From the NCBI GenBank assembly GCA_963814275.1, contig CAWFCE010000002.1, positions 1,195,263 through 1,259,262 on the forward strand: a stretch of DNA of 64,000 bases, written 5' to 3'. Every line of letters starts with the position of its first letter. The first letter of the stretch is position 1. This DNA is from Candidatus Parcubacteria bacterium. GTDB taxonomy: Bacteria; Patescibacteriota; Patescibacteriia; Patescibacteriales; UBA12075. Below are positions 24,920 to 40,398 of the stretch, one piece after another. Position numbers and translations under genes: made by a program. The notes below the pieces were generated by a model. That model was not told where the DNA came from, ran no database searches, and worked only from the letters and a program-made list of their open reading frames with translations.

Positions 24920-25780
24920 TTATAATAAATCCCCGATTTCGTCAAATTTATTTACTGCAACTTTAGTATAAATTTGAGTGGTTTCCAGGCGAGCATGGCC
25001 CAGCAAAGACTGAATATATCTTAAGTTTACACCATTTTCTAAGAGGTGGGTAGCAAAGCTGTGGCGCAATGAATGAGCAGAAACCCGTTTTTTGATCCCG
25101 GCCCGATTTGCGGCCTCGGTGACAATTTTCTGGATGGTCCGAACCGTCAATTTCCCGGCCGAACGGAAGCTTTCGAACAAGAATTCGGCCGGATCATAGC
25201 CGCGGATGTATTGCCCGATGTTTTCCAACACTGTCCCGGACACGATCGTCACCCGGTCCTTGTTGCCCTTGCCGGCCTGGATCCGGATTATTTTTCGGTC
25301 AAAGTCGATATCATAAACCCGCAAATTCACAAGTTCGCTCACCCGCATGCCGGTGGTATAAAGCACCTGGATGATGAGTTTATGTTTTATATTTCCTGCT
25401 ACCTCTATCATCCCAATGATTTCTTTTTTCGCCAGCACAACCGGTATCCTGGAGCCCATTTTGGGCCGCTTGATCCGGATTTCCCCGGCAAAAAAATTCC
25501 TCTTTAAAATTTGCGTGTAATAGAATTTAATGGCGTTGATCGCCAGGTTCAAGGTCGCCGGCGCCCGGCCGCTCACCAGAAGCCAATCCAGATAATCTTT
25601 TATATCCTGCGCGTTTAAATCATCGCTGAATTTGTTTGCAAATCTAAGCAATTCCTTGGTATAATAAACATAAGCCTTTACCGTTTTTTGGCTATAATTC
25701 CGTATTCTCAATTCCTGCTCCAAGTTATAAAACAAATCCCTTTTTAAAGTAGTAGAACGATTTAAATCTGATGGTAGCAT
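24920..25780 (-). CDS. tyrosine recombinase, integron-integrase-like N-terminus but Xer-sized (array 1 recombinase)
   Basis: 286 aa. SAM-like core-binding domain (IRNYSQKTVKAYVYY..., RIPVVLAKKEI); catalytic set TGMRVSE, GKGNKDR, HSLRHSFATH, LLGH, QIYTKV. It is divergent from and 78 bp away from the first GTTRRRY site. Confidence 0.85.
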   Translation of the reverse strand: MLPSDLNRSTTLKRDLFYNLEQELRIRNYSQKTVKAYVYYTKELLRFANKFSDDLNAQDIKDYLDWLLVSGRAPATLNLAINAIKFYYTQILKRNFFAGEIRIKRPKMGSRIPVVLAKKEIIGMIEVAGNIKHKLIIQVLYTTGMRVSELVNLRVYDIDFDRKIIRIQAGKGNKDRVTIVSGTVLENIGQYIRGYDPAEFLFESFRSAGKLTVRTIQKIVTEAANRAGIKKRVSAHSLRHSFATHLLENGVNLRYIQSLLGHARLETTQIYTKVAVNKFDEIGDLL

Positions 25781-25850
25781 ACCTTAATTAGCTAACATAT
25801 TTATATAATAATTTTAACTAATTTTTAACAAAAAATCAACAAGTTCAGAT

Positions 25851-25864
25851 ATAACCAGTTAGAT
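25851..25864 (+). other. attI-like site of array 1 (ATAACCAGTTAGAT)
   Basis: First GTTRRRY box (GTTAGAT, 25858-25864) after the recombinase gene. The ATAACCAGTT prefix is shared with array 2 (58890-58899). It is complementary to the R'' of cassette 1. Confidence 0.5.
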
Positions 25865-25902
25865 GAAATAATTAAATTATTTTCTGCTACGCAGAAAAAT
25901 TA

Positions 25903-27126
25903 TTGGGGCAAATTTATTTTTTTTATGAATATGAAGAAAAAATTCAAAAACCAACTCCTGAAAACAATCAAGAGTCACAAGCTGATATTTTACCTGAAAC
26001 ATACACCAAAGCCCGCACTCAAGAGATTAATCAGCAAATTAATTCATATCAGGGACCAAAAAACTCTGTAGATTTGGTATCCAAAACCAAAGAGATACAA
26101 GAAAACTACAAGCAATACATGGAAGAATCAGATGCTGAAGGAAGCCAAGAAACATTACAGCTTTTTCAAAAAAAAATGCAGGCAGAGATTGATTTCTATA
26201 AAAAAGAGTTTGATAAATTTAATGATCTGCAAAGGCTAGAAACCGTCTCTAATATATTAAAACCAGAAGATTTTCAGCTCTATGAAAAAATTCTAGGCAA
26301 CAAGGAAGGAAACACAGATGATTTATTTGATTCCCGCGGTAAAGTAATTCACGCCACAAATTCAACTGCACTAGATATAATATCTGATGTTAATACAATT
26401 TCTGGAGGAACAAGGCAGCTTGGACCTTCTTTCTCTGACGGAGATCACGACATCGCAATCACTTTTAATCTTGTGTGGGAAAAATTAAAAACGCCAGGAG
26501 GCATAGATAAAACCCACAAAAAAATTGACCTTGATGAATATCCACAATTCCCCAGTAAATATAATGAATTTGTTGATTGGGCAGTGCAAAGATTAAAAAA
26601 TGAATATGGCGAGGGAGAAAAGTTTGAAATGGAAAAAAACAAACTTCTTGCAAAAGCTGAAAAACATAACGAAGATAAATCAGTCCTCCACGATACTGAA
26701 GAACAGTACACTCAAGAATTAAAAGATATGGCATATGGCACGCTTAAACCGAAGTGGATAAAAGACGGGCTTAGCGAAGAAGAAGCTGAAAATAAAGTAA
26801 AAGAATATATTGAAAATCAAAACCATTTTAAAAACAGGCTAAAAAACCGACCTCAAAATGAAGTAGCCTTCCCTGTTACACTTGCATTTATTAAAAATGA
26901 GCTACCTGAACTTGTGCCTGAAGGTGGTGAAAGAGAATTTGAACTAAGAACAGAAGAAGAAATTAAGCTTGATAATGCCTCTACCATATTTGTTCCTGAA
27001 AAATATCTAAATAGCAGACTTGTTAGAAAAATAAATCAGGTTTATCCTAATATAGACATAAGAACAGAGGAGGAGTTGGAATTTGTAAGAATGAATAAAT
27101 TATTAAATAAAATAAATTTGCCCTAA
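25903..27126 (+). CDS. hypothetical Lys/Glu-rich protein (cassette 1)
   Basis: 407-aa ORF. Start uncertain: the TTG at 25903 lies inside the cassette inverted repeat and the first in-frame ATG is at 26119. Confidence 0.5.
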   Translation: MGQIYFFYEYEEKIQKPTPENNQESQADILPETYTKARTQEINQQINSYQGPKNSVDLVSKTKEIQENYKQYMEESDAEGSQETLQLFQKKMQAEIDFYKKEFDKFNDLQRLETVSNILKPEDFQLYEKILGNKEGNTDDLFDSRGKVIHATNSTALDIISDVNTISGGTRQLGPSFSDGDHDIAITFNLVWEKLKTPGGIDKTHKKIDLDEYPQFPSKYNEFVDWAVQRLKNEYGEGEKFEMEKNKLLAKAEKHNEDKSVLHDTEEQYTQELKDMAYGTLKPKWIKDGLSEEEAENKVKEYIENQNHFKNRLKNRPQNEVAFPVTLAFIKNELPELVPEGGEREFELRTEEEIKLDNASTIFVPEKYLNSRLVRKINQVYPNIDIRTEEELEFVRMNKLLNKINLP

Positions 27127-27162
27127 TAATAACTCGCTTCGCTCGTTGAATTTAATTACATC

Positions 27163-27254
27163 ATCTAACAGCGTGTATACGGTTCGCGCTTGGCTATCGC
27201 CAAATGCTCACCCAAATTTGCTTCGCAAACTTCGTATACACACGAACGTTAGGC
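27163..27254 (+). repeat. attC-like site 1
   Basis: R'' ATCTAAC (27163-69) is the reverse complement of the upstream GTTAGAT. It is followed by stem GTGTATACG / CGTATACAC, GGTTCG, hairpin H1 TTGGC-TATC-GCCAA, CACCCAAATT, hairpin TTTGC-TTCG-CAAA and ACTTCG. R' is GTTAGGC (27248-54). Confidence 0.75.
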
Positions 27255-27318
27255 GCAACAATAAAAAGCCTCTTTAATTAATTTAATAATTTTGGCAATT
27301 TATTTGCCCAATAAAACT

Positions 27319-27702
27319 ATGATAAAACCAGACCAAAATTTAGGAAAATTTTTTTCCAAAGAAGACCAATCCATTGAAAAGGAAACTGATTTAAAACAAC
27401 TTCAAGATTTCGCCGTATTATACCATGAAAAAAACATGCCTGAAGATCAGGAGAAAAAATTTATTTCATTGGCGCAAAAATACATAGACGAGAATCATGA
27501 TGGAACATACTATAATGAAGGCAATACAGATTATATTTATGTGCAACTTCCAAACGGACTATACTTAGAAGCTGATGCACATCTCAGAAGTAACACCTTT
27601 TATTTTTCCGGAGTACTATCAAAAGAAGATGCAGAAAAAAGAATAGACATGTTAGCAAAACAACGGGAAGAAGATATAAAAGCAGCTTTAGATAAAGAAT
27701 AA
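27319..27702 (+). CDS. hypothetical protein (cassette 2)
   Basis: ATG at 27319. The track start at 27292 reads through the cassette inverted repeat. 127 aa. Confidence 0.5.
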   Translation: MIKPDQNLGKFFSKEDQSIEKETDLKQLQDFAVLYHEKNMPEDQEKKFISLAQKYIDENHDGTYYNEGNTDYIYVQLPNGLYLEADAHLRSNTFYFSGVLSKEDAEKRIDMLAKQREEDIKAALDKE

Positions 27703-27842
27703 ACAAATTGCCAAAATTAATTTAAATAGCGGAGGAGGCTTTTTATTACTCGCTCCACTCCGTTCCGCGCCGCGCTGCGCTCTCACCCTCAAATTTTATG
27801 ATTATTAACTTTAATAAGGTATAAAATTTGAGTCTTCGGGGC

Positions 27843-27941
27843 GTATAACAACGCGATATACGGTTCGGCCCTCGGCCCGGGCCTCACCCAAATTGCAATC
27901 CCCTTCGGGTCTTGCAACTTCGTATATCGGTGATGTTGTGT
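27843..27941 (+). repeat. attC-like site 2
   Basis: Degenerate R'' GTATAAC; CGATATACGG / CGTATATCGG stems; GGTTCG; H1 GGCCC-TCG-GCCCGGGCC; CACCCAAATT; H2 GCAATCCCC-TTCG-GGTCTTGC; ACTTCG. R' is GTTGTGT (27935-41). Near-identical to site 14 except for H2. Preceded by an extra hairpin module at 27749-27842. Confidence 0.7.
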
Positions 27942-28006
27942 GAAATAATTAAATTATTTTTGCTCCGCAAAAATTGTTAGGGCAAATTTATTTAATCTTT
28001 AATCTT

Positions 28007-28456
28007 ATGAAACTCTATCATGGTTCACCAAATAGTTTTGATACAATTCGTAAAAGTCAGGCGCAAGCAGGTGATGATATTAAAGTGCCAGATGATGAAT
28101 TATTAAACGCGATTTATTTAACCCCAAATTATGAATTTGCTTTGGCCATCGCTTCGATGCCGGAAGGTGCTGCCAACATCGACAATGAAACCAAAACAAT
28201 CAAGTTTGAAAATCCTGAAGCATTCGACCCAGAAAAAGAAGTTTATATTTATGAAGTTGATAGTGAATTAATCCCGAAAGAAAATTTAAAAGAAGTTGAC
28301 GAGCTTCAAATTGCGATTTTAAACACCGATGAAATAAAGCCAACAATAAAACATGTTTGCAAAGCTGGTGATGTTGAGAAATATTATGAAATAAAAAAAG
28401 AAATTTTAGAGGCTAAAAACGAAACTAAAATATCACCTGAGTTCAAGATTAAATAA
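28007..28456 (+). CDS. hypothetical protein (cassette 3)
   Basis: ATG at 28007 (MKLYHGSPNSF). The track start at 27974 lies in the inverted repeat GGGCAAATTTATTT. Confidence 0.5.
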   Translation: MKLYHGSPNSFDTIRKSQAQAGDDIKVPDDELLNAIYLTPNYEFALAIASMPEGAANIDNETKTIKFENPEAFDPEKEVYIYEVDSELIPKENLKEVDELQIAILNTDEIKPTIKHVCKAGDVEKYYEIKKEILEAKNETKISPEFKIK

Positions 28457-28500
28457 ATTTGCCCTAACAACTCGCTATCGCTCGTTAATTTAATTACATC

Positions 28501-28627
28501 ACACAACACCGCGATAAACGGCTCGGTCTTTATTCAAAGACCTCGCGCAAATTTCTGTTTTCTCTTTTGTGATTAATTTAATAATGTAGAGAAGACAGAA
28601 ACTTCGCTTCATCGGGAAACATTATGT
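28501..28627 (+). repeat. attC-like site 3
   Basis: R'' ACACAAC is the reverse complement of the upstream GTTGTGT. CCGCGATAAACGG / CGCTTCATCGGG stems with conserved bulges; GCGCAAATT; long H2 with an ATTAATTTAATAAT loop; ACTTCG. R' is ATTATGT. Confidence 0.72.
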
Positions 28628-28686
28628 GAAATATGTTTTTACTCTTGGGCTAACGCCCCAACTTTTATATAATAAATTTAATTTTT

Positions 28687-29136
28687 ATGAATAACCTAAA
28701 ATATACGAAACCACTAAACATTTTTTTGCTTTTAGTAGCTATTGTCTTATTAGCTGGTTGCTCAAATAAATATTTTGAAAAAAATTTGGAGTGCGAGAAA
28801 CAAAAAGACATGCTTCAATACAACAGCGATAATTACAGCAAGGATACCAACACAATTATCAGTAAAATTCAAAAAGTATTTTACAGTCCAAAAGCAAAAA
28901 AATGTTTGTATGTTAGTGTCTCTGCAATCGATTTTAATTCGCCTAATAATATGACTGCTCTAACACAGAAAGACTATTCAGACGGAGCAAGATGGAAGCT
29001 CCGGACAATTTCAGGCGAATTAGTTGAAGATTTGCTAATTAACACTGAAGATGAAAAAATGGCTGTTTTTGGAGCAGAGCCACAACATACAGATTCATAT
29101 GAAGAATTTGAAAACCTTGTTAAAAAATGGGAATAA
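28687..29136 (+). CDS. putative lipoprotein (cassette 4)
   Basis: 149 aa. Signal peptide with lipobox LLAGC. Confidence 0.55.
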   Translation: MNNLKYTKPLNIFLLLVAIVLLAGCSNKYFEKNLECEKQKDMLQYNSDNYSKDTNTIISKIQKVFYSPKAKKCLYVSVSAIDFNSPNNMTALTQKDYSDGARWKLRTISGELVEDLLINTEDEKMAVFGAEPQHTDSYEEFENLVKKWE

Positions 29137-29200
29137 AAAATTAAATTTATTATATAAAAGCAATTCCGCATAAGCGGAATTAAGAGCAAAAACATACATC

Positions 29201-29657
29201 ACATAACAATGAATATGCGGTTCACAAATTAAAAATTATTCCTTATAATTATCAAAATATATGAAAAAAATATTAGTATTCGCGGTCGTTGTCTTGTTAA
29301 TAATTTTAGTGTTTAGCTGGTGGAATAAATCCCCAGAAGCTACATGGCAGGGTTCCTATTACAAACACGGACAACAAGAAAACGAAGTGTATGGACCAAT
29401 TTTTACTAATTTTGATGGCTGTAAAGCGTGGGCATTAGGAAAAATAGTTTATAACGACGACACAGCTAACTGTAGTAAAAATTGTCATGACGCTTTGGGA
29501 GACGGCACCCCTGTGTGTGAGGAAGTTGTTAGAAATTGGGCACCGCTTCCGGGCAGTTACACTTTTGATAATTATAAGGAATAATTTTTAATTTGTTCAC
29601 CCAAATTTTTGTTCCGCTTCGCTACACAAAAACTTCGCATATTCATAAACGTTAGGC
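29201..29657 (+). repeat. attC-like site 4, split by a nested cassette (29225-29595)
   Basis: R'' ACATAAC matches the upstream TTATGT. L'' AATGAATATGCG (29208-19) pairs with L' CGCATATTCAT (29636-46). The insert is flanked by GTTCAC (29220-25 and 29595-600) and sits immediately 5' of CCAAATT. R' is GTTAGGC (29651-57). Confidence 0.72.
29261..29584 (+). CDS. small secreted/TM-anchored Cys-containing protein (nested cassette)
   Basis: 107 aa with an N-terminal hydrophobic helix. The ORF is bracketed by a perfect 32-bp inverted repeat (29225-29256 / 29564-29595), whose right arm encodes the last 6 codons plus the stop. Confidence 0.55.
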   Translation: MKKILVFAVVVLLIILVFSWWNKSPEATWQGSYYKHGQQENEVYGPIFTNFDGCKAWALGKIVYNDDTANCSKNCHDALGDGTPVCEEVVRNWAPLPGSYTFDNYKE

Positions 29658-29689
29658 GAAATAAATTTTTCGCTACTAATTTTAAACAT

Positions 29690-30283
29690 ATGAAAAAATT
29701 CTTTTTGGGCTTCGCAAGCTCGTTATTAATCACAATTCCCCTGATCGCTTTTTCTGCTGATTCACTGTCTACAAAACTAAAAGGAAAAATTTTGTTAGCA
29801 GTAGAAGATAAGGGTAAAACTTATTATGTCAATGAAGATGGAAACAGATACAGAATTACTGTTTCTACTGCACAAAAAATATTTGAAAAACTTGCATTGG
29901 GCATTACAAATGAAAATTTAAGTCAAATTCCAGAAAGTAACGTAGGTATCGACCCAGAAGAAAACAGCACCCAGGAAAATTGTGCTGCGCAAGAATCAGA
30001 ATTAAATGATTGGAAGAATTTGAATACAAAAAATGAAAATACCCTCAGTTCTTGCCTTAACACCCTCACTAGCTTGAAGGATTCTTATGCAGACCTAATT
30101 AACAAATACGAAGATTGCATAGGTGAGTGCAATTATGGCCCTACAGTTGATGCACTCATCGCCCAAAATAACGAGCTTGCTAAACAAAATGATGAACTTT
30201 TAGCTATATCTATTTACTGGGAAAATAGTGCTAACACATGGAAGGCTTACGCATATGGTTGCACTGGCTATACTAGTCAATAA
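29690..30283 (+). CDS. secreted protein with KGKILLxVExxGxxYYV motif (cassette 6)
   Basis: ATG at 29690 (MKKFFLGFASSLLITIPLIAFS signal peptide). The track start at 29609 reads through attC-like site 4. Confidence 0.55.
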   Translation: MKKFFLGFASSLLITIPLIAFSADSLSTKLKGKILLAVEDKGKTYYVNEDGNRYRITVSTAQKIFEKLALGITNENLSQIPESNVGIDPEENSTQENCAAQESELNDWKNLNTKNENTLSSCLNTLTSLKDSYADLINKYEDCIGECNYGPTVDALIAQNNELAKQNDELLAISIYWENSANTWKAYAYGCTGYTSQ

Positions 30284-30336
30284 AATTAGTAGCGAAAAAT
30301 TTACTCAAGGGTTCGCTCCTTGAATCCGCTCACCTC

Positions 30337-31028
30337 GCCTAACGCGGCGTATCTGGCTCCGCTGGCCGTAAAATAATTAATTTTTTTATGACGATATTAA
30401 AGCCCAGAAATAAACCTGGCTCAAATAGTTTGCAAAACAGATTAGGTGGAGCAGTTTATAATTTTCTGGACAAAGCAAAAAATAATGATAAATTTTTGTT
30501 AGACTACGAAAGGATTAAAGGTAAATGTACCTCTGGCAATTGGCAAATTAATGATTATTCTCCAATACTTTTGCCATTGGTTAAATACTATGAAAATAGC
30601 TTGTGGTTTATTTGTGATAAATTAGGCATATTTAACCAGATTAATGACGGCAAAAAACCCCATAGCTTAAGGGCATTTTTCGACACAAAAGAAACAGAAA
30701 TAAATATTTGGCTTTCTTCAAAAATTAATGATAATCTTAAATATAAAAAATTGTCCAGAAAATTATTTTCAACAATCGACGATTATGTTCAGAGAAATGA
30801 AGTTGTTCATTGCAACGAAATCATATCCTTTCCCGATTTGAGCAATTACGATAGTTTGCTTACTAAATTAAAAGAATTAGTTGAACTTTTATTTAATCAC
30901 AATTTATTACAAAAAAATTAATTATTTTACTAGCTCCGCCCAAATTTCGTTTCCGCTTTTTGTTGGCGCATCCGCGCAATTATAACAAAAAGCTACAACG
31001 AAACTTCAGATACGCCGAAATGTTATCG
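30337..31028 (+). repeat. attC-like site 6, split by a nested cassette (30363-30932)
   Basis: R'' GCCTAAC is the reverse complement of the upstream GTTAGGC. L'' GGCGTATCTG (30346-55) pairs with L' CAGATACGCC (31007-16). The direct repeat GCTCCGC occurs at 30356-62 and 30933-39, the latter abutting CCAAATTT. R' is GTTATCG (31022-28). Confidence 0.72.
30388..30921 (+). CDS. hypothetical protein (nested cassette)
   Basis: 177-aa ORF flanked by the 20-bp inverted repeat GTAAAATAATTAATTTTTTT (30368-87 / 30911-30). Confidence 0.5.
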   Translation: MTILKPRNKPGSNSLQNRLGGAVYNFLDKAKNNDKFLLDYERIKGKCTSGNWQINDYSPILLPLVKYYENSLWFICDKLGIFNQINDGKKPHSLRAFFDTKETEINIWLSSKINDNLKYKKLSRKLFSTIDDYVQRNEVVHCNEIISFPDLSNYDSLLTKLKELVELLFNHNLLQKN

Positions 31029-31120
31029 GAAATAAATTTTTTATCTTGGTGGTAATTTCAAGGTTTGCGCGTTTTGCCAAGACGAAAATTTGATTTTTTA
31101 TTTTTTAAAGAGGGGTAATT

Positions 31121-31609
31121 ATGAAATTAACCAAAGAAACTACCTCGGAAAAACTTCTTGATTTTGGCAAACAGATTTTCGAGATTTTACAAAGACTAGA
31201 TACCTCACCAATCGTTTACGGTAGTTTGGCATATTTTTATCATACGAAAGATACTAGTTTCCCGATTAGAGACATTGATTTGCTTTTGCCAGAATCAAAT
31301 TTTTCAAAAATATCTGAAATGCTCGACAAAGAAAAAAATGTCACATACAATGTGATGCCATATCATAGTATAGAGGTATTCAGAGACGGTCTCGAAATCG
31401 ACATCGATTCTATCGAACATTTTTTAGATCCGAGATCTAGAGAATTTCATAAATCAACGATAAACGACCTCGATTTGAATATTTTAAATAAAGAGTCCTT
31501 GGCAAGCATTTACAAAGAAGCCTTGGATAACATGCCGCAAGAGAAAAAACTCGATGAAAAAAGAAATAAGTATCAAAAGAAGTTAGACAATCTCCAAAAA
31601 TTACTTTAA
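31121..31609 (+). CDS. hypothetical protein, possible minimal nucleotidyltransferase fold (cassette 8)
   Basis: 162 aa with SD AAGAGGGG. YGSLAYFYH...IRDIDLLLPE resembles the GS...DxD motif of Pol-beta-type nucleotidyltransferases; this is a weak call. Confidence 0.4.
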   Translation: MKLTKETTSEKLLDFGKQIFEILQRLDTSPIVYGSLAYFYHTKDTSFPIRDIDLLLPESNFSKISEMLDKEKNVTYNVMPYHSIEVFRDGLEIDIDSIEHFLDPRSREFHKSTINDLDLNILNKESLASIYKEALDNMPQEKKLDEKRNKYQKKLDNLQKLL

Positions 31610-31734
31610 TAAGGAGTTTTTATTTTTGGCCATTCACCCCTACCCCTCTGGCCAAAAATAAAAACAAAAAATCAAATTTTCTTTTAACGTAGAAAAGCTA
31701 TCGGCCAGTAGCATGGAGATAAAAAATTTACATC

Positions 31735-31921
31735 CGATAACACGGCACATGCGGTTCAGAAATTTCTCGTTTTTTAGACTTTTCAATTAAGGTATGAGAA
31801 ATTTCCTCTCCCAAATTGCGCTGACTATATGGAAAGTTTAGTGGTATAATCAAGTTAAGCGATAATCAATAATTTTATCAATAAATAACGGCGCAACTTC
31901 GCATGTGCCGATACGTTAAAT
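31735..31921 (+). repeat. attC-like site 8
   Basis: R'' CGATAAC is the reverse complement of the upstream GTTATCG. GGCACATGCGG / CGCATGTGCC stems; GGTTCA; H1 GAAATTTCTC...GAGAAATTTC; CTCTCCCAAATT; long H2; AACTTCG. R' is GTTAAAT (31915-21). Confidence 0.72.
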
Positions 31922-32016
31922 GAAATTGGCTAATTGTTTAGTGTACACCATAGATGACACTATAGTGTACACTAATGTGGTAAATCAAAGTTAATCGCGA
32001 GCCAACTTCACTTAAC
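31916..32016 (+). other. conserved ORF-less cassette, copy 1 of 3
   Basis: GAAATTGGCT...TTAATCGCGAGCCAACTTC-ACTTAAC with internal palindrome TAGTGTACAC-N16-GTGTACACTA. Homologous copies are at 59441-59542 and 61297-61396. Confidence 0.6.
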
Positions 32017-32534
32017 AGGTGATATGCGGTTACAATTAAGGAAATATAGAATATAATTTTTACTAAAAAAATCCCCACGAACTGAATCGCAGGGACACGT
32101 TGGTTTTAGTCCATCTTTGGAAATTACACAATAAGGATTTTTGCTCTGCCTTCGACATTGTGAAAACCGATAAACACAGTATTGCGTCCGGTTTCCTTTA
32201 AACGTTTCAATGCTAACACGGCAGCTTCGGTACCAACGGTTTTTTCAAAATCTGATATGAGCTTTATGGCATCATCAATCGGATAATCATCAACTTCCAC
32301 TCCAACCATTGGTCCGTGCTTTTCTGGGTCATATTCTGATATCGGCGCTGTCTTTAATTCCATATTCCCTCCTTTTTATGAATTGTTGCTAGAAACTTAG
32401 CACGTGAATGCCAAAAACGCAAGTAAAAATTATTTTCTATATTTCTTTAATCTCCACCCAAATTCCTGCCCCTCTTTTTAGGATAAATTAATAATGAGTC
32501 GGGGCAGAAACTTCGCATATCAAAAATGTTAGGC
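32010..32534 (+). repeat. attC-like site 9, split by a nested reverse-oriented cassette (32034-32451)
   Basis: R'' ACTTAAC. L'' GGTGATATGCG (32018-28) pairs with L' CGCATATCA (32513-21). ACCCAAATT and the H2 stem CCTGCCCC...GGGGCAG follow. R' is GTTAGGC (32528-34). This is a paralog of the array 2 site at 59536-60215. Confidence 0.7.
32124..32363 (-). CDS. hypothetical 79-aa protein (reverse-oriented nested cassette)
   Basis: Strong SD (AGGAGGG) 7 nt upstream of the ATG on the minus strand. The cassette is bounded by a roughly 29-bp inverted repeat (32034-63 / 32423-51). Confidence 0.55.
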   Translation of the reverse strand: MELKTAPISEYDPEKHGPMVGVEVDDYPIDDAIKLISDFEKTVGTEAAVLALKRLKETGRNTVFIGFHNVEGRAKILIV

Positions 32535-32559
32535 GAAATTTATTTTCAATTTAAAATTT

Positions 32560-33396
32560 ATGAGTTCGGATACTATAACCAATTACTACGATTACACCCT
32601 GCCATTTTATAGATTTTTTTATCACGGCAAGAGCAATGCCGTTCATTATGGCTTTTGGAACAATGGAGTTAAAAATCACCAGGAAGCTTTATTGAACGTA
32701 AATAAATTTTTGGCTGACACGGTTAAGATAAAATCAGATGATAGTGTTTTAGACGCGGGTTGCGGAATTGGAGGTAGCGCGATTTGGCTGGCACAGAATT
32801 ACAATGTTCGAGTTGATGGCATAACCATAAGTGAAAAACAGTTAGAGGAAGCCAAAAATTTATCTACCAAATATAATGTTGACCATATCGTAAATTTTTA
32901 TCAAAGAAATTTTTTAAATACCAAATTTAACGATAGTTCCTATAACATAGTTTTGGCGATTGAAAGCGTGTGCCATGCCGAGAACAAAAAGGACTTTATC
33001 AAAGAAGCGTACCGGGTACTTAAAAACGGCGGACGATTGATTGTTGATGATGGATTTCTTTTGCGAAGTCCGAAAAATAAACACGAGCAAAAAGATTTAA
33101 ATGCATTTTTAGAGGGCATGGCACTCTCCAATCTTGCTTTTGAAACAGACTTTAAAAAATCTCTTGAAGATGTTGGATTTAAAAATATAAAAATTTACGA
33201 CAAGGTCAACGAAACGATTCCTTCTTCAAAAAAAATCTATAAAATGTCAATTTTTAGTTATCCTTTATCTATAATTCTCGAAAAACTAAAACTTACACCA
33301 CCATTATTAACCAAAAATAATTTAGCGGGAATAACACAATACAGGATAATTAAAAATGGGATAATGGGACACCGAGTATTTTACGCTGAAAAATAA
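32560..33396 (+). CDS. class I SAM-dependent methyltransferase (cassette 11)
   Basis: 278 aa. Motif I VLDAGCGIGGSAIWLA; post-I and motif II/III spacing (LKNGGRLIVDD). Confidence 0.8.
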   Translation: MSSDTITNYYDYTLPFYRFFYHGKSNAVHYGFWNNGVKNHQEALLNVNKFLADTVKIKSDDSVLDAGCGIGGSAIWLAQNYNVRVDGITISEKQLEEAKNLSTKYNVDHIVNFYQRNFLNTKFNDSSYNIVLAIESVCHAENKKDFIKEAYRVLKNGGRLIVDDGFLLRSPKNKHEQKDLNAFLEGMALSNLAFETDFKKSLEDVGFKNIKIYDKVNETIPSSKKIYKMSIFSYPLSIILEKLKLTPPLLTKNNLAGITQYRIIKNGIMGHRVFYAEK

Positions 33397-33419
33397 ATTT
33401 TAAATTGAAAATAAACATC

Positions 33420-33573
33420 GCCTAACACCGCGATAAGCGGCTCCAGAAAAGTTCCTTAATTAAATATAATAATGAGTAAACTTTTCTTCCGACCCAAATT
33501 TCTATTTTTCTTTTCTTATTAATTTTAATATTGAAAAAAAATAGAAACTTCGCTTCATCGGGAAACGTTGTGT
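33420..33573 (+). repeat. attC-like site 11
   Basis: R'' GCCTAAC is the reverse complement of the upstream GTTAGGC. CCGCGATAAGCGG / CGCTTCATCGGG stems; GGCTCC; H1 33445-87; CCCAAATT 33493-500; H2 33501-45; AACTTCG 33546-52. R' is GTTGTGT (33567-73). Confidence 0.75.
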
Positions 33574-33639
33574 GAAATAATGTCCTTAAACAAAATATTT
33601 TAGGTGGTGCTAATTCAAAAGAAAAAGGAGGGAGGTATT

Positions 33640-33852
33640 ATGGTAATCATCAATAAACTTGGCAGATTATTAAAAGACCATTCAGAAACTTTTATTCTTT
33701 TTTTAGCGGGTATAATATTAACCCTATACGGGATTTTGAAAGCATTGCCTTTTATTGATTGGGCGCAGAAAGGTCAATTTTCGAGTGAGTTTACTATTTT
33801 ACTTGGAATACTTCTGCTATTCTTTGGACTTCGTTCATTATTAAACAAATAA
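33640..33852 (+). CDS. small two-TM membrane protein (cassette 12)
   Basis: ATG at 33640 preceded by AAGGAGGGAGG. 70 aa. Confidence 0.55.
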   Translation: MVIINKLGRLLKDHSETFILFLAGIILTLYGILKALPFIDWAQKGQFSSEFTILLGILLLFFGLRSLLNK

Positions 33853-33955
33853 ATTGATTATTCTCGCGGGGAACACTTTCCCCGCACCACCTAAAATATT
33901 TTGTTAGCTTCTATTCAGAAGCTGTTTGCTCAATCGCAAACAAGGACATTACATC

Positions 33956-34073
33956 ACACAACAACGCGACAAGCGATTCGGTCTTTATTCAAAGACCTCA
34001 CTCAAATTTTTGAAATGATTATTAACTTTAATAATGAATTTCAAAAACTTCGCTTCGTCGGTATACGTTATAT
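33956..34073 (+). repeat. attC-like site 12
   Basis: R'' ACACAAC is the reverse complement of the upstream GTTGTGT. H1 GGTCTTTATTCAAAGACC; CACTCAAATT; H2 TTTGAAATG...ATTTCAAA; ACTTCG. R' is GTTATAT (34067-73). Confidence 0.72.
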
Positions 34074-34090
34074 GAAATTAAAAATTCCCT

Positions 34091-34603
34091 ATGAGCATTA
34101 AACAAGATTGGAAAAGTCCCAAAGTTGATATAAAAGATAGTCCGATTGGAGGAAAAGGCATTTTTGCTAATTCCAATATTAAACGAGGTGAAAAAATCAT
34201 CGTCTGGGGAGGAAATTATACTGATGCTGTTGGTGCGCAAAAAGCAAAAGAAAAAGGTATGCTAGTATTTCAATGGGACGATGACCTTTATAGCTACGAA
34301 GATAGAGGGAAAGACGATGGGTACTACATAAACCATTCCTGTAACCCTAATCTATGGATGACAGATGCATACACTTTAACAGCTATGAGAGATATTAATG
34401 CTGGTGAAGAAATTACAATAGATTATGCGTTGTTCGAGGAAGATGATTATATTTCAAAATGGAAATGCAACTGCGGTTCATCGTTATGCCGCGGCCGGGT
34501 TACAGGAGAGGATTGGAAAAGCATAGTGCTACAAAAACGCTATAAAGGACATTTTTCACCTCTCTTAAATAAACGGATCCAGAAATTACAAGATAATAAA
34601 TAA
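34091..34603 (+). CDS. SET domain protein (cassette 13)
   Basis: 170 aa. YINHSCNPN and EEITIDY SET motifs plus the post-SET CNCGSSLCRG. Confidence 0.8.
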   Translation: MSIKQDWKSPKVDIKDSPIGGKGIFANSNIKRGEKIIVWGGNYTDAVGAQKAKEKGMLVFQWDDDLYSYEDRGKDDGYYINHSCNPNLWMTDAYTLTAMRDINAGEEITIDYALFEEDDYISKWKCNCGSSLCRGRVTGEDWKSIVLQKRYKGHFSPLLNKRIQKLQDNK

Positions 34604-34627
34604 TTCACGGCGGGAATTTTTAACATC

Positions 34628-34772
34628 ATATAACACCGCGATAAGCGGTTCCAGAAAATTTCCTTTATTAATGATAATAATGAATAAAATTTTCTTCCAC
34701 CCAAATTTTGCAAATGAATATTAATTTTAATAAGGTATTTGCAAAACTTCGCTTCATCGGGAAACGTTAGGC
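34628..34772 (+). repeat. attC-like site 13
   Basis: R'' ATATAAC is the reverse complement of the upstream GTTATAT. Same family as sites 3, 11 and 17. R' is GTTAGGC (34766-72). Confidence 0.75.
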
Positions 34773-34800
34773 GAAATAATTTATCAATAATTAAATTTCT

Positions 34801-35150
34801 ATGGGAATAGACAACAAGCCTTTTACGGCAGAGCAACTCCAGGAACAGATTAATTTTTTTGGAATTGATTGCACTGTAAAAAAACACCTGGAGAAAAATA
34901 TATATTTTTTAGTTGTGACTCTATGGAAGACGCGGAATCAATAGTAGTAAGTTTTTGGGGAAAAAGAGATCAATCAGTTGTTGACGGCCTTAACCGAGGC
35001 ATGCTAAAACCTAGTCATGAAATTACTACAGGTGCCAGAACGGAAATCACTGAAATCGGAGGCAAAGCAACATTAATTATTAGTGAAAACGGTGCTCCAC
35101 TTTCGGAAAAAACAATTTCAGCATTAGAAGATGGAGGATTTACAATTTAA
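34801..35150 (+). pseudogene. hypothetical cassette gene with a frame break at an A7 run (cassette 14)
   Basis: The ATG at 34801 opens MGIDNKPFTAEQLQEQINFFGIDCTVKK. After the A7 run (about 34877-34883) the reading continues in another frame as TPGEKYIFFSCDSMEDAES... to 35150; one extra A would fuse the two frames. Alternatively an intact ORF could start at ATG 34923. Confidence 0.4.
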
Positions 35151-35232
35151 TTATTGATAAATTACTCAAGGGGGCGCTGCGCTTCAGGTCTGCCTTTTAC
35201 AATTAATAATATTGAGAGCAGACCTGACCCTC

Positions 35233-35331
35233 GCCTAACAACGCGATATGCGGTTCGGCCCTCGGCTCGGGCCTCACCCAAATTTTCTTTCACTTCGTTC
35301 AAGAAAACTTCGTATATCGGTGATGTTGTAC
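35233..35331 (+). repeat. attC-like site 14
   Basis: R'' GCCTAAC is the reverse complement of the upstream GTTAGGC. Near-identical to site 2 apart from H2. R' is GTTGTAC (35325-31). Preceded by a hairpin module at 35165-35232. Confidence 0.75.
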
Positions 35332-35359
35332 GAAATAAAAATTTAATTATTTTGCTACC

Positions 35360-36079
35360 ATGAAATTCAAGGAAGCATACAAACACATAAACCCCACCGA
35401 ATACATAAATATTTTTTCCAACCCTCAATGGTATTTGGAAATACAAGCTGAACTAAAGGATTTTTTTTATGATTATGACGGCAATAAGGATAACAAATCG
35501 CAAGAATGGCTTGAAAAAAGGAAAGAATTTGTAAAAATGGTTTGTGAACTTTTAGAAGCTGGCAAAGTTGCTCTTGGCGACTCTGGTATAAACTGGGATA
35601 AAGACCGTTTACCCATAGATACAATTGTTATACATCATACGAGCACGCCATCAGACACCCCCGTTATAGCCATTGATGCACTGGGATTGATTCGTTTGTA
35701 TGCACCGAATTACAGCAAAAAAAATGAGGAGCAATTTGGCCAGCCAATATGGTCAAACCATTTTTGCAAAAATCAACAAACATTCGTTGCTTATCATTAC
35801 ATAATCAGACAGGATGGTTCTTTTGAACACATATTACAAGATGACCAAATAGGTTGGCATTGTGGCAATTGGGATTATAACTGCAGAAGTATTGCGATTT
35901 GTTTTCTTGGTGATTTAAAAGAAAAAAAACCGACTGAAAAAGCACTTCAAACGGCGAATGAAATCATAAAAAAATATCCAAATTGTAATATATTCGGTCA
36001 TAGAGAAATTAAACCCACAACAACTTGCCCAGGTAATCTGTTTCTAGGGAAAGAGGGTTGGAAAACGACATATTTCTAA
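35360..36079 (+). CDS. N-acetylmuramoyl-L-alanine amidase (amidase_2/PGRP fold) (cassette 15)
   Basis: 239 aa. IVIHHTSTP...AYHYIIRQDG...GWHCGNWDYNCRSIAICFLG...GHREI...TCPG. Confidence 0.75.
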   Translation: MKFKEAYKHINPTEYINIFSNPQWYLEIQAELKDFFYDYDGNKDNKSQEWLEKRKEFVKMVCELLEAGKVALGDSGINWDKDRLPIDTIVIHHTSTPSDTPVIAIDALGLIRLYAPNYSKKNEEQFGQPIWSNHFCKNQQTFVAYHYIIRQDGSFEHILQDDQIGWHCGNWDYNCRSIAICFLGDLKEKKPTEKALQTANEIIKKYPNCNIFGHREIKPTTTCPGNLFLGKEGWKTTYF

Positions 36080-36107
36080 GAACGCAAAATAATTAAATTT
36101 TTACATC

Positions 36108-36186
36108 GTACAACACTGAATATCTGGTTCCGTTATCGCTCCACCCAAATTGCTGACGCAACTTCAGATATTCAGAAACGTTATCG
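36108..36186 (+). repeat. attC-like site 15 (shortest, 79 bp)
   Basis: R'' GTACAAC is the reverse complement of the upstream GTTGTAC. CTGAATATCTGG / CAGATATTCAG stems; GGTTCC; CCACCCAAATT; hairpin GCTGACGCAA; CTTCAG. R' is GTTATCG (36180-86). Confidence 0.75.
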
Positions 36187-36253
36187 GAAATATTGCTCAT
36201 TAAAATATTTTTTTGTAAGAGGGCTTGAAATTAACTATCAAAGGAGGATTGTA

Positions 36254-36544
36254 ATGAAGAAAAAATCTTTACACAACGTTGGAGATTTGGTCGTATTTAA
36301 TGAAACCAAAGAATTTGGGAACAAAAATGACCGTATATTTCACATCCACGCCATTCGATATGGCAAATGCACTGGAATTCCTAAAAAACAATATTGGTTC
36401 GCTGGTTTCCTGCTGGAAATTGGAAAACACGAGAGTGAGGGTTTACCTCAAATTCCAGTTTTTGCAACAACCTTAACCAACGCTTCCGAAAATCAATTGA
36501 GTTCATTAGAGCATCTACAATGCCGTTTCAACCCATGGAAATAA
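36254..36544 (+). CDS. hypothetical protein (cassette 16)
   Basis: 96 aa. SD AAAGGAGGA upstream of the ATG. Confidence 0.5.
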   Translation: MKKKSLHNVGDLVVFNETKEFGNKNDRIFHIHAIRYGKCTGIPKKQYWFAGFLLEIGKHESEGLPQIPVFATTLTNASENQLSSLEHLQCRFNPWK

Positions 36545-36651
36545 TCTACGCCCTTTGTCTTCGCGGGAATAAACAATATTCCCGCCCTCTTTTCAAAAAA
36601 ATATTTTTGCTGGCTTATCAGCCAACGGCTATCACTAATGAGCAATATATC

Positions 36652-36759
36652 CGATAACAGCACGCTATCCGGTTCGCGCTTGCCCTGTCGGGCAAATGCT
36701 CACCCAAATCCCGACTCCGATTCACTACATCGGGACTTCGGATATCGGCATATGTTATG
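36652..36759 (+). repeat. attC-like site 16
   Basis: R'' CGATAAC is the reverse complement of the upstream GTTATCG. Family shared with sites 18, 23 and 24 (GCACG.TATCCGG ... CCGATATC). H1 stem TTGCCC/GGGCAA. R' is GTTATGT (36753-59). Confidence 0.75.
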
Positions 36760-36815
36760 TGAAATTTAAGTTGTGGCCTTAATTAAATTTAATATATTCA
36801 ATAACTTCTCTCTTA

Positions 36816-37208
36816 ATGATAAAACAAGTTTCATTGTTAATATTATTTGATAAAGATAAGCGCATTTTATTGCAACATCGTTCCGAAGATCAAGAAGGAT
36901 TACCTGGCTATTGGGCTTTTTTTGGTGGTCATATTGAAAACGGCGAAACACCAGAGCAGGCATTACTGAGAGAGTCTGAGGAGGAATTAGAGTATATGCC
37001 GGAAAACCCCCGCCTAGTTATGACTCAGGATTTTATGCACGACAATATACGACATAGAAAATACGTTTATTTAGAGGAATATAATAACAGCAAACTTGTT
37101 CAACACGAGGGTCAAGCTATGGGATGGTACCATTTAGGCGAAATACAAAAATTAAAAATGGTAGACCACGACCGAGAAGTTATTGATTATATTAAAAACA
37201 AATATTGA
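36816..37208 (+). CDS. NUDIX hydrolase (cassette 17; duplicated at 60271-60663)
   Basis: 130 aa. Nudix box [23 protein letters not shown]. Protein sequence identical to the array 2 copy. Confidence 0.85.
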
Positions 37209-37227
37209 GTGCCACAACTTAAACATC

Positions 37228-37433
37228 ACATAACACCGCGATAAGCGGCTCCAGAAAATTTTCTTTATTAATATTAAACAGGAATAAAATTTTCTACCGG
37301 CCCAAATTTCATTTCAGTTTTCTGATGAACGTTCAATAAACGTTCATCGCTCCACGATTGTCTGATATTGATAATAATCGATTCTAAAACGGAAAACTGA
37401 AGTGAAACTTCGCTTCATCGGGAAATGTTAAAT
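37228..37433 (+). repeat. attC-like site 17 (206 bp)
   Basis: R'' ACATAAC is the reverse complement of the upstream GTTATGT. Long branched H2. R' is GTTAAAT (37427-33). Duplicated with the NUDIX cassette in array 2. Confidence 0.72.
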
Positions 37434-37497
37434 GAAATATCTAAAACAAATTCCCTATCGGGAATTTTATCTGCAAGTTTATAATTAATTTTCTTAT

Positions 37498-38160
37498 ATG
37501 AAAAACAAATTTTTTTTACTATTAATCTTAGTCATTATCTTAGCTGGGTGCAATAAACAAAACACAAGTATTAATTTAACCCCAGATAATCAAACTAAAA
37601 ATATTTCAAACTCAACAAACGATACTAATACATCAATACAGGAAAACGTAGAAGCAAAAAACAATATTCCCGAAGAAAAACCAACAGAAATTAAGCAAGA
37701 AGACGATATAAAAATACAAAATATTAATAATAAAAAAAGTTATCAAAATTTAACAACTGGGTTTAGCTTAGAATTTCCAGAGGCATTAATATTCAGGAAT
37801 AACGCTTTTTACACCGAGGTAAACTGGGACGGTATTGTAAATAAAAAAACTGACCATATGTACGTTCCTGAATTTACTGTCCGTTTTGCATCTGATGTGT
37901 CATTAGATGAATTTATTTATAATTCGATTAACCCAAATTATAAAAATCATTTTAATTCAAACAAAAACAAAATCAAAGAACAAAAAACAATAGGAAATAA
38001 TAAATTCTTTATGATAAACAGTAAAAATTTTGATAGCAATGGTTGTAGTTACTATATAGAAAATAATAAAAATATAATGAGATTAAGTACCGCATATAAC
38101 TGCGGTGAAAACGAATTAATAGAAAACGTTTTGATATCTATTAAAACAACAGAAAATTAA
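37498..38160 (+). CDS. putative lipoprotein (cassette 18)
   Basis: 220 aa. Signal peptide with lipobox ILAGC; Asn/Lys-rich. Confidence 0.55.
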   Translation: MKNKFFLLLILVIILAGCNKQNTSINLTPDNQTKNISNSTNDTNTSIQENVEAKNNIPEEKPTEIKQEDDIKIQNINNKKSYQNLTTGFSLEFPEALIFRNNAFYTEVNWDGIVNKKTDHMYVPEFTVRFASDVSLDEFIYNSINPNYKNHFNSNKNKIKEQKTIGNNKFFMINSKNFDSNGCSYYIENNKNIMRLSTAYNCGENELIENVLISIKTTEN

Positions 38161-38212
38161 TTATAAACTTGCAGATTATTTTTGCTATCGCAAAAATGGT
38201 TTTAGATACAGC

Positions 38213-38318
38213 ACATAACAGCACGATATCCGGTTCGCGCTTTCCTTCGGAAAATGCTCACGCAAATCCCGACTCCGTTTCACTGCGTCGGGACTTCGGA
38301 TATCGGCATACGTTAGGC
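38213..38318 (+). repeat. attC-like site 18
   Basis: R'' ACATAAC has 2 mismatches to the upstream GTTAAAT. Paralog of site 16 with a compensatory H1 stem TTTCC/GGAAA. R' is GTTAGGC (38312-18). Confidence 0.68.
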
Positions 38319-38347
38319 GAAATTTAAAATTTATCTTTATCTCAATT

Positions 38348-38638: not shown

Positions 38639-38712
38639 ACTCAAGGGGGCGCTGCGCTTTCGTCCCGCCCTTTGAATAATATAATTTAATATTGTAGGCG
38701 TGACGAACCCTC

Positions 38713-38811: not shown

Positions 38812-38845
38812 GAAATTACACTTTTTAAAAAATAATTTTATTATT

Positions 38846-39511: not shown

Positions 39512-39589
39512 TAATAAAATTATTTCTTTATTTGGGCTATTCGCCCAAATGTCCTTCCCTATCGGTCAGGACTAAAAAGTGTAACTGTC

Positions 39590-40325: not shown

Positions 40326-40398
40326 GAAATAAATAAATGCTTTTCGGCTAACGCCGAAAAATTATTCGGGCAAATATTTATTATTCAATACTAAAAGA

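Follow-up and report, generated by a model that had tools for sequence, protein, structure and literature searches.

A 64,000-nucleotide stretch of DNA from a Candidatus Parcubacteria bacterium (contig CAWFCE010000002.1, positions 1,195,263 to 1,259,262 of the forward strand; hereafter the window) contains a series of structured repeats, the first of them at window positions 27163-27254, that we interpret as attC-analogue cassette sites of an integron-like gene capture platform in Patescibacteria (the candidate phyla radiation, CPR). The platform would be operated by a short XerA/Xer-type tyrosine recombinase rather than by a canonical IntI integrase. We assign this interpretation, which is drawn from sequence, a probability of about 0.7.

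The window comprises two blocks of 33% G+C, at ~25.9-43.0 kb and from 58.9 kb on, set in surroundings of 43-51% G+C, and within each block short plus-strand open reading frames (ORFs) follow one another in a row with structured repeats between them. These blocks are AT-rich cassette arrays, array 1 at ~25.86-42.98 kb and array 2 at ~58.90-62.36 kb. Array 1 (25859..42975, plus strand) holds 20 complete sites and two distal 3' half-sites, and array 2 (58898..62360, plus strand) holds at least six sites and may run on toward the window end. Each is immediately preceded by a minus-strand gene for a tyrosine recombinase, the first (24920..25780) encoding a XerA-like protein of 286 amino acids (aa) without the IntI-specific insertion, and the second (57970..58782) a protein of 270 aa with the same architecture and 40% identity to the first. 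Approximately 60-115 bp upstream of both genes lies an attI-like double-stranded core, with the array on the divergent side, as at the attI site of an integron. The cores, on the plus strand, take the form WKTTCRNATAW-AACCAG-TTRNNNGAAAT, with two inverted 11-bp arms around a 6-7 bp spacer: AGTTCAGATAT-AACCAG-TTAGATGAAAT (11-6-11) at 25842..25869 in array 1, and TTTTCGCATAA-TAACCAG-TTGTACGAAAT (11-7-11) at 58880..58908 in array 2. Related cores are conserved upstream of related recombinase genes in other Patescibacteria loci (L001, L003, L006, L007, and L008), and in L010, L011, and L013 the right arm alone is recognizable.

Both recombinases carry Phage_integrase and SAM-like domains, and for both the top NCBIfam model is recomb_XerA_Arch, the cut-off of which recombinase 1 exceeds at 249 bits. 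The integron-integrase model TIGR02249 scores 208.8 and 197.5 bits, below its cut-off of 265, with a match that is broken into two stretches. In the alignment to VchIntIA (2a3v), query residues 182-214 stand opposite chain residues 171-245; hence, approximately 40 residues of the IntI insertion are absent. As judged from alignment and family models, this IntI-specific insertion (the I2 helix) is absent from both recombinases and from their homologs of 270-295 aa. The protein aligns end to end and continuously with archaeal XerA (4a8e), its best solved relative, and the RKHRHY catalytic residues are invariant across the family, in keeping with a Xer architecture, while the N-terminal domain is closest to IntI4 (102 bits over 163 residues). 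The nearest homologs, with 57-74% identity and lengths of 276-295 aa, belong to Falkowbacteria, Parcubacteria, and other Patescibacteria, and in a published classification such enzymes form a "Cand" subgroup of Xer-related recombinases with an assumed Xer role (PMC8138268). Directly after recombinase 2, on the same strand and with overlapping start and stop, is a 476-aa ORF (56540-57970, minus strand) that has no Pfam match.

The repeat at 27163-27254, the first of array 1, reads as the original prediction described it: R'' (ATCTAAC, 27163-27169), a stem arm, GGTTCG, the hairpin H1 (TTGGC/GCCAA), CTCACCCAAATT, the hairpin H2 (TTTGC/GCAAA), AACTTCG, the complementary arm, GAAC, and R' (GTTAGGC, 27248-27254). 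The string CCCAAATT occurs 25 times in the window against an expected 7.2 +/- 2.4 (23 on the plus strand, all but two at array sites), and AACTTCG 22 times against 8.8. We curated 26 sites in the window, all of them on the plus strand and within the two arrays, and profile hidden Markov models of the 5' and 3' modules found no match in the window outside these arrays. Every site had been predicted to follow one fixed reading; this stands for the order of modules, which is constant in 25 of the 26 sites and broken only at 41605-41702 by loss of the CCCAAATT module, but not for the literal consensus strings, which fit between 4 and 19 sites each. Thus, RYYYAAC is found in 11 sites and its core YAAC in all 26, GTTRRRY in 12 and GTTR in 25, YTCVCCCAAATT in 4 and CCAAAT in 22, AACTTCG in 15 and ACTTC in 24, GGYTCS in 18, and (A/G)AAC in 11. 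The YAAC and GTTR cores correspond to the inverted R''/R' cores of classical attC sites. Two conserved flanks had gone unnoticed, namely GAAAT after R' (22 of 26) and ACWTC before R'' (16 of 26).

In other respects the prediction holds up well. The shared modular grammar with compensatory change in the stems is borne out by the constant module order and by the covariation described below, and the linear center is indeed the best-conserved part of the sites, unlike that of mobile-integron attC sites. The family of bulged sites (28504, 33423, 34631, 37231, 60686, and 61149) is real and recurs in L003 and L006, with single-base bulges confined to this one family. That the repeats are attC-like is upheld by their covarying stems, by integron-like cassette boundaries, and by the attI-like core and divergent recombinase at the array start.

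To assess pairing, 45 sites (26 from the window and 19 from four related loci) were aligned over 84 columns, with the variable interiors of H1 and H2 trimmed. The anchors were curated, as automatic pairing had joined the wrong 5' and 3' halves; because H1 and H2 vary in length, pairs were counted directly on the anchored, trimmed alignment rather than with a covariance model. As single-stranded DNA, compact sites fold into a three-way junction formed from a main stem (R box and arms), H1, and H2. Over all modeled pairs, 93.8% are paired compared with 76.9% in shuffles (0/500), with a covariation score of 0.452 against 0.133 for shuffled alignments and at most 0.10 with slid partners, and changes on both sides affect 208 cells against 61 in shuffles. 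Because seven left-arm positions had been located by complementarity, we recounted on the eight pairs that were not used to find or register sites. These independent pairs are 92.3% paired (54.0% shuffled) and score 0.931 (0.215 shuffled, at most 0.23 with slid partners), and all eight change on both sides, with two to five standard pair types each.

The same picture emerges at the level of individual elements. Sixteen distinct arm sequences each have their matching complement, covariation with the arm extends to the final position of AACTTCG (G:C, A:T, T:A), and AAATT/AACTT changes to AAATC/GACTT in four sites. Both hairpin segments fold more stably than shuffled sequences, H1 with a mean z of -2.2 and H2 with one of -2.1. 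H2 spans 8-97 nt of unrelated sequence with covarying base pairs, resembling the variable terminal structure of attC sites. The predicted compensatory H1 examples at 27190, 36679, and 38240 are correct, save that the first, its sequence rightly given, had been placed one base too far along, at 27191. The GTTCRRY after the first stem had been likened to the classical inner (L) box, but GGYTC is not that box: its first G ends the arm and pairs with the C of ACTTC, and its second G closes the H1 branch as G:C in 41 of 45 sites. Around H1, G26:C35 is paired in 42 of 45 sites (41 G:C and one A:T) and Y27:R34 in 30 of 45.

Three other pairings were considered and discarded. Closure of the branch by G26:C36 (39 G:C) was dropped in favor of G26:C35, which also exposes the covariation of Y27:R34. 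Pairing of GG with the C(TT)C of AACTTCG, leaving TT bulged, was rejected, as TT pairs with the AA of AAATT in a helix that covaries. Pairing between the R'' and R' triplets of the same site is at shuffle level.

The conserved center can be understood from the first site, S1, which with its flanks spans 27158..27259 on the plus strand and consists of an R'' half-site, an arm, the H1 branch, CCCAAATT, H2, AACTTCG, the second arm, a spacer, and R' with its flank. The R'' half-site (27158..27169; ACATCATCTAA plus C) complements the attI right arm TTAGATGAAAT and not its own R'. GTATACG at 27175..27181, which would be the inner 7 nt of a second (L) half-site on the left strand, pairs with CGTATAC at 27233-27239. 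The H1 branch follows at 27182..27213 (G-TTCG-CGC-TTGGC/GCCAA-ATG-CTCA-CCC), where it separates the G of the L half-site from its AAAT. AAATT, the H2 hairpin, and AACTT(C) occupy 27214..27233, where AAATT:AACTT, with a conserved A.C mismatch, supplies the outer part of L and the hairpin its variable tip. The right-strand spacer (27240..27247, ACACGAAC) is 2-3 nt longer than the left one and bulged as (A/G)A(A/T)(C/T), and R' with its flank (27248..27259) reads GTTAGGC plus GCAAC, the latter position being GAAAT in 22 of 26 sites, with a putative crossover at G|TT.

Across the sites, R' and its flank have the consensus TTAnnnGAAAT, and the last 7 nt of the left arm joined to the AAAT of CCCAAATT have the consensus ATATnCG^AAAT; on the other strand of each half-site, R'' and its flank read ACnTCnnnTAA, and ACTTCG with the right arm (L') reads ACTTCGnATAT. 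The profile of R' overlaps that of the left L composite by 0.78 in register and by at most 0.44 when shifted, and R'' overlaps L' by 0.66 in register and by at most 0.35 when shifted. Left arms of attI cores (AGTTCAGATAT, AGTTCGCATAT, AATTCGCATAT, and ACTTCGCATAT) fit the L' consensus as well. Hence, the folded site appears to be a copy of the attI core, with two inverted 11-bp half-sites. The equivalent of the L box appears to be the last 7 nt of the arm together with the AAAT of CCCAAATT, paired with ACTTCGnATAT, so that CCCAAATT and AACTTCG would form the outer part of this second half-site and be the same element that flanks the R box as GAAAT/ACWTC. The left strand has a spacer of 6-7 nt, like attI; the right-strand spacer is 8-10 nt long and therefore carries two to three extra bases next to the cleavage point. 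Between its G and AAAT, the L half-site is interrupted by H1, which ranges from a 5-bp hairpin to a stem enclosing a gene.

The two strands of the sites are not equivalent. An A.C mismatch on the top strand, which on the bottom strand is a G.T wobble, recurs at the same position of both half-sites (45 of 45 in the L box, 35 of 45 in the R box), and the modeled pairs of the top strand include 123 A.C cells against 23 G.T cells. When the folding energies of the two strands were compared, as the original prediction had proposed, the bottom strand was the more stable in 29 of 32 sites, comprising 18 of 20 in the window (mean -1.9 kcal/mol, Wilcoxon p = 5e-5) and 11 of 12 elsewhere; for S1, folded as DNA, the values are -19.2 kcal/mol (bottom) and -14.1 kcal/mol (top). 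The z score of the bottom strand was also lower in 10 of 10 sites tested against dinucleotide shuffles. From the parallel with integrons, we infer that the substrate of recombination is most likely the bottom strand in folded form.

As a separate observation, the plus-strand GC skew is negative in the flanks of the window. Under the usual skew rule, the lagging-strand template would carry the bottom strands of the sites, the reverse of the arrangement reported for the chromosomal integron of Vibrio cholerae.

The boundaries of the cassettes are those of an integron, bounded at G|TT and with R'' matching the previous R'. The variable triplet of R'' is perfectly complementary to that of the previous R' in 25 of 39 cases and to its own R' in 3 of 39, where random pairing yields a mean of 4.2 and a maximum of 12 (10,000 permutations). 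This match is the signature of cassettes that were once circles joined at G|TT, and each cassette unit begins with the TT of one R' and ends with the G of the following one. One NUDIX cassette is present with its site in both arrays (36754-37427 and 60209-60882, ~98% identity), and the identity extends from the preceding GTT to just before its own GTT, beyond which the neighbors differ; the recombinases of the two arrays are nonetheless only 40% identical. The cassettes comprise single, promoter-poor genes, and none encodes a recombinase or has replication or phage functions.

The same sites are found in all eight longer related loci examined (L003, L006, L008, L010, and L087-L090), on the strand divergent from the recombinase gene, with recombinases that are 45-74% identical. 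The 3' module has 3 matches in L087, 16 in L088, 13 in L089, and 3 in L090, and single site matches occur in L007, L011, L012, L017, and L021. No sites were present in the locus DNA searched around more distant recombinase relatives (33-41% identity). A metagenome scan with a generic catalytic motif returned mostly distant relatives (33-47% identity), most of them without sites in the DNA searched, and a contig search with a single recombinase protein gave three useful loci, two of which end at the gene. The locus L006 is orthologous to that of the window, with 74% DNA identity across the recombinase region; one whole cassette is 96% identical and sits at a different position, and its other cassettes differ from those of the window. 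L089 (1-10000) and L090 (1-6378) share an identical recombinase and the same downstream genes and have completely different cassettes. Both also show the synteny seen in the window (GT2, NTP transferase, PEGA, EPSP synthase, CtpB, and L9), and an ISL3 transposase lies inside the L089 array.

In the mechanism that we propose, a site would act as a folded single strand, most likely the bottom one, that imitates the attI core, and two recombinase monomers would bind each folded bottom strand. R''/R' with the ACWTC/GAAAT flanks would provide one 11-bp half-site, and the last 7 nt of the left arm with the AAAT of CCCAAATT, paired with ACTTCGnATAT, would provide the second. The two to three bulged spacer bases would adjoin the cleavage point, H2 would stack on the L half-site as its variable tip, and H1 would protrude from the L half-site as a side branch. 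The R-bound monomer would cleave after ...TAA, and resolution would be replicative. In integrons, extrahelical bases provide strand choice, polarity, and the silencing of the L-bound monomer; here, the A.C/G.T wobble and the H1 branch together would take over all three roles. On this proposal, the center is conserved because the recombinase reads its sequence. An enzyme that lacks the IntI domain for extrahelical bases would need sequence in both half-sites, and a conserved L box is then understandable.

A broader claim, which we advance tentatively and at somewhat less than even odds, is that these loci represent a living integron lineage without I2, in which a Xer-type enzyme acts on folded single-stranded sites, both half-sites are read, and the branch and G.T wobble replace extrahelical bases. 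If so, this lineage would be a missing intermediate between Xer/dif and IntI/attC, and folded cassette sites could predate the I2 domain, which would answer the "chicken-and-egg" question of integron origins.

Several points weigh against the integron-like interpretation. The recombinase family is abundant in CPR, and the literature assumes that it resolves chromosome dimers (PMC8138268). The proposed binding and cleavage, choice of strand, and requirement for folding all derive from the DNA sequence. The 3' module alone has two inverted arms in duplex form, making a double-strand reaction possible, with a spacer that would then be 8-10 bp. The seven left-arm pairs located by complementarity are ascertained, and, as the sites form families, cell counts overstate the number of independent events. 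The conserved G-YTCS / YTCV-CCC around H1 is only partly explained, its inner TC x TC being unpaired. Rebuilding the L half-site across a three-way junction presupposes coaxial stacking of H2 on the arm, and the gene-carrying H1 branches of 290-590 nt would fold slowly.

Other explanations have to be set against this one. It seems unlikely that the recombinases are housekeeping dimer resolvases, with the "attI" core being dif and the cassettes being parasites that carry folded dif mimics in the manner of CTXphi. The core has a classic 11-6-11 dif-type layout and lies beside the recombinase gene, as the difSL core lies next to xerS, and the R' half-sites are identical at 7-10 of 11 positions to the XerD arm of E. 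coli dif, TTATGTTAAAT. The XerA-like character of the recombinases and the Xer function given to the "Cand" subgroup (PMC8138268) point the same way. Yet this explanation would not lead one to expect two recombinase-core-array units 33 kb apart with paralogs that are 40% identical, nor a cumulative GC skew that falls monotonically across the 64-kb window without a terminus-like switch; the single promoter-poor gene cassettes without replication or phage functions and the placement of the array, divergent from the recombinase gene in 8 of 8 longer loci examined, also speak against it. In mechanism, it differs from the integron-like platform only in that the enzyme also resolves dimers. A purely double-stranded reaction, in which the duplex 3' module (ACTTCGnATAT, spacer, GTTRnnnGAAAT) is recombined by a two-strand Xer mechanism and the 5' half and hairpins have another role or are by-products, is quite unlikely in our view, even though the arms of this module agree in sequence and order with those of the double-stranded attI core, the domain by which IntI is adapted to folded DNA is missing from the recombinase, and IntI itself retains ancestral double-strand activity (PMC4792948). 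Its spacer would measure 8-10 bp compared with 6-7 bp in attI, and it would leave unexplained the covariation between 5' and 3' arms, the match of R'' to the start of its own cassette, the placement of AAAT exactly where it completes a half-site, and the systematic A.C/G.T asymmetry between strands.

Three further explanations appear far weaker. The center and hairpins could act in the transcript, as terminators, processing sites, or stabilizers independent of recombination; the sites do follow closely after ORFs, on the coding strand, the array contains 26 terminator-like hairpins against 12.6 +/- 3.6, and long inverted repeats enclose ORFs. We consider this very improbable, since the terminator-like matches are mostly on the minus strand and outside the sites, H2 is followed by AACTTCG and not by a T run, and the non-coding bottom strand folds better, the coding strand having A.C where an RNA needs pairs. 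In addition, Rfam gave no match at the gathering threshold and, within the array, none even at E <= 1, and the R''/previous-R' rule and attI cores would be left unexplained. That the sites are true attC sites served by a true IntI missed by annotation would account for the divergent integrase, attI, co-oriented cassettes, YAAC...GTT cores, and G|TT crossover, and for an N-terminal domain most like IntI4 (102 bits over 163 residues). An ordinary integron of this kind nevertheless has very little to recommend it when the IntI-defining insertion is missing from both recombinases and their 270-295 aa homologs, TIGR02249 stays under its cut-off, the flanks outside the 7-bp cores are conserved, and the L box, with its conserved sequence and the branch that splits it, lies 6-7 nt rather than ~5 nt from R''. 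Least credible of all is that these are miniature transposon- or repetitive extragenic palindromic (REP)-like repeats, spread by other means and near recombinase genes by chance. Their multi-copy, AT-rich nature, their wealth of inverted repeats, and the ISL3 transposase in the L089 array would be compatible with this, but at every locus examined the repeats have one orientation only and occur only in arrays opening at an attI core beside a recombinase, and the R''/previous-R' rule with exact cassette boundaries indicates site-specific recombination.

The remaining sites, all on the plus strand, are arranged as follows. In array 1, S1 is succeeded by S2 (27838..27946) and by S3 (28496..28632), a member of the bulged family with its R' mutated to ATT. 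Three of the next four sites are split by coding sequence within the H1 branch: S4 (29196..29662) by a 107-aa ORF at 29261-29584, S5 (30332..31033) by a 177-aa ORF at 30388-30921, and S7 (32005..32539) by a minus-strand coding sequence (32029-32458) in an H1 of 431 nt, with S6 (31730..31926) lying before the last of these. S8 (33415..33578), S9 (33951..34078), and S10 (34623..34777) belong to the bulged family, S9 showing arm compensation from T:A to C:G. The entire cassette of S11 (35228..35336) is the one common to L006 at 96% identity, S12 (36103..36191) is the shortest site at 89 nt, and S13 (36647..36765) has the AAATC/GACTT variant, a compensatory change from T:A to C:G. S14 (37223..37438), also of the bulged family, has a cassette that is duplicated in array 2. 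Following S15 (38208..38323), S16 (38708..38816) has an H1 that is fully Watson-Crick from the branch G and presents the cleanest three-way junction (z of -5.0 for the top and -5.5 for the bottom strand). S17 (39585..39731) precedes S18 (39752..40330), which is split by a NUDIX gene at 39809-40234 within H1; S19 (40987..41100) and the degenerate S20 (41605..41702), from which the CCCAAATT module is deleted, complete the series. In array 2, T1 (59343..59451) is followed by T2 (59531..60220), split by a NUDIX gene at 59588-60121 within H1, T3 (60678..60893), the copy of S14, T4 (61141..61307), of the bulged family, T5 (61385..61780), with a small ORF (61464-61622) within H1, and T6 (62239..62360).

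Array 1 ends in two distal 3' half-sites for which a 5' half was not found, CCCAAATT...AACTTCG...GTTCAGCAAAAT at 41975..42052 and CCCAAATT...AACTTCC...GTTCAGAGAAAT at 42891..42975, both on the plus strand. Their R' is GTTCAG(C/A), and the attI right arm of L001, ~80 nt upstream of the recombinase gene, is likewise TTCAGCAAAAT; hence, the array end may preserve an ancestral attI right arm.

Genes embedded in H1 are also present in L003, L006, and L008. They sit between GGYTC and CCCAAATT, closed by inverted repeats of 12-28 bp, and two of those in the window encode NUDIX hydrolases. In cassettes of this kind, the space from R' to R'' has no called ORF, except at S4 and S5, where another ORF is found there. 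A scan for sigma-70 promoters in the array gave no enrichment (76 matches against 70.9 expected). Strong sigma-70-like matches, among the strongest in the array, lie at 29221-29249 and 32029-32057 (TTCACA-17-TATAAT, the best, and GTTACA-17-TATAAT, 10/12) and start at the GGTTCA/GGTTAC junction of gene-bearing H1 branches, so the site may supply the -35 element for the embedded gene.

Cassette ends are themselves complementary: within a cassette, the 70 nt that follow the R' flank can pair with the 70 nt leading up to the R'' flank (e.g., 25870-25940 with 27088-27157). The duplex energy of cognate ends is -19.9 kcal/mol, compared with -8.8 kcal/mol for non-cognate ends, and 16 of 22 rank first (p = 1.6e-8), so that each ORF forms the loop of a long stem by which the R box is extended. 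NUDIX hydrolases are a recurrent cassette type, with four examples in the window and a single one in each of L087, L088, and L089; the other cassettes of the window and L087-L089 include a SET domain, a methyltransferase, Amidase_2, a weak HEPN match, and, for the most part, unknowns. The site of the duplicated cassette has in its H2 an insertion of ~60 nt with a hairpin of its own, TGATGAACGTTCAATAAACGTTCATCG (37323-37385 and 60778-60840).

A conserved ORF-less element of ~100 nt, at 31915-32016, 59440-59542, and 61296-61396 and also in L003 and L006, is in every case followed by a split site. Extending from GTTAAATGAAATTGGC... to ...AATCGCGAGCCAACTTCACTTAAC and containing an internal palindrome, which in the first copy is TAGTGTACAC...GTGTACACTA, it may be an operator/promoter or a small RNA. 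An extra module, consisting of ACTCAAGGGGGCGCTGCGC, a hairpin, and CCTCGCCTAAC, lies directly upstream of R'' at 27770-27845, 30300-30343, 35165-35239, 38640-38719, and 59275-59354, where it replaces the usual ACATC flank. Many H1 and H2 loops share an AT-rich motif, TTAAT..TAATAA(G/T)G(T/A)A (e.g., 33460-33480, 34715-34740, 40270-40290, and 62300-62325).

Compared with known systems, the platform most resembles the integron (IntI/attC) in having a divergent tyrosine recombinase beside an attI site, co-oriented and mostly promoterless single-gene cassettes, and imperfect palindromes with YAAC...GTT cores, a unit running from TT to G, and an R'' that matches the previous R'. Also shared are an unpaired or bulged spacer, a variable terminal hairpin, a favored bottom strand, and site families conserved per lineage, like the Vibrio repeats. 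It differs in that the recombinase here is without the I2 helix, the part of IntI that binds extrahelical bases, and in that sequence conservation covers 11 bp in each half-site and takes in the flanks beyond the 7-bp cores. Classical attC L boxes lie ~5 nt from R, are read by shape through extrahelical bases, and are poorly conserved, whereas here 6-7 nt separate the L box from R'', and a branch helix able to carry a gene interrupts the box. Moreover, the sites form a three-way junction rather than a single hairpin, the cassette ends are long inverted repeats, and the host belongs to Patescibacteria, a phylum unmentioned in the IntegronFinder 2.0 survey (PMC9024848).

The folded site finds its closest parallel in attP(+) of CTXphi, where XerCD, which have no I2-like domain, act on a folded strand that imitates the duplex dif core (PMC4792948). 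Here, too, the folded site would imitate a core, that of attI, for a Xer-type recombinase without I2. The CTXphi stem is without extrahelical features, and the phage borrows host enzymes (PMC4792948), whereas the recombinase here is encoded beside its own array, with dozens of gene cassettes and with stems that contain a mismatch, bulges, and a branch. With Xer/dif systems (XerCD, XerA, XerS/difSL, and XerH/difH) the platform has in common the fold and length of the recombinase and an 11-6/7-11 core with inverted arms, of which the attI right arm TTRNNNGAAAT resembles the XerD arm TTATGTTAAAT. In place of a single dif core at a skew switch, there are two cores 33 kb apart in 64 kb of monotonic skew, each forming a unit with the mobile cassettes and folded sites that follow it. 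The pdif modules of Acinetobacter plasmids likewise move genes in small modules bounded by XerC/XerD sites; these sites are duplex, alternate in orientation, and depend on host XerCD, without a dedicated recombinase, attI, or folded-site grammar.

In a literature search, which was limited and is no proof of absence, we found no Patescibacteria cassette arrays or attC-like sites and no integron with an insertion-less recombinase. Standard finders key on the IntI domain and a classical attC model, and so would probably miss these arrays. Integron integrases are thought to have descended from Xer-like enzymes by gaining I2, which recognizes folded attC sites. Which came first, attC sites or the I2 domain, has been noted as an open paradox (PMC4792948), and a natural platform with integron logic and folded sites but no I2 would make this question testable. 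Such a platform would also extend integron-type gene capture to a phylum of tiny genomes, and its site architecture could serve as a programmable single-strand recombination substrate; a half-site rebuilt across a three-way junction, with genes in the branch of the site, would be unusual for tyrosine recombinases. The system is integron-like in its working and CTXphi-like in its substrate, and is a member of neither.

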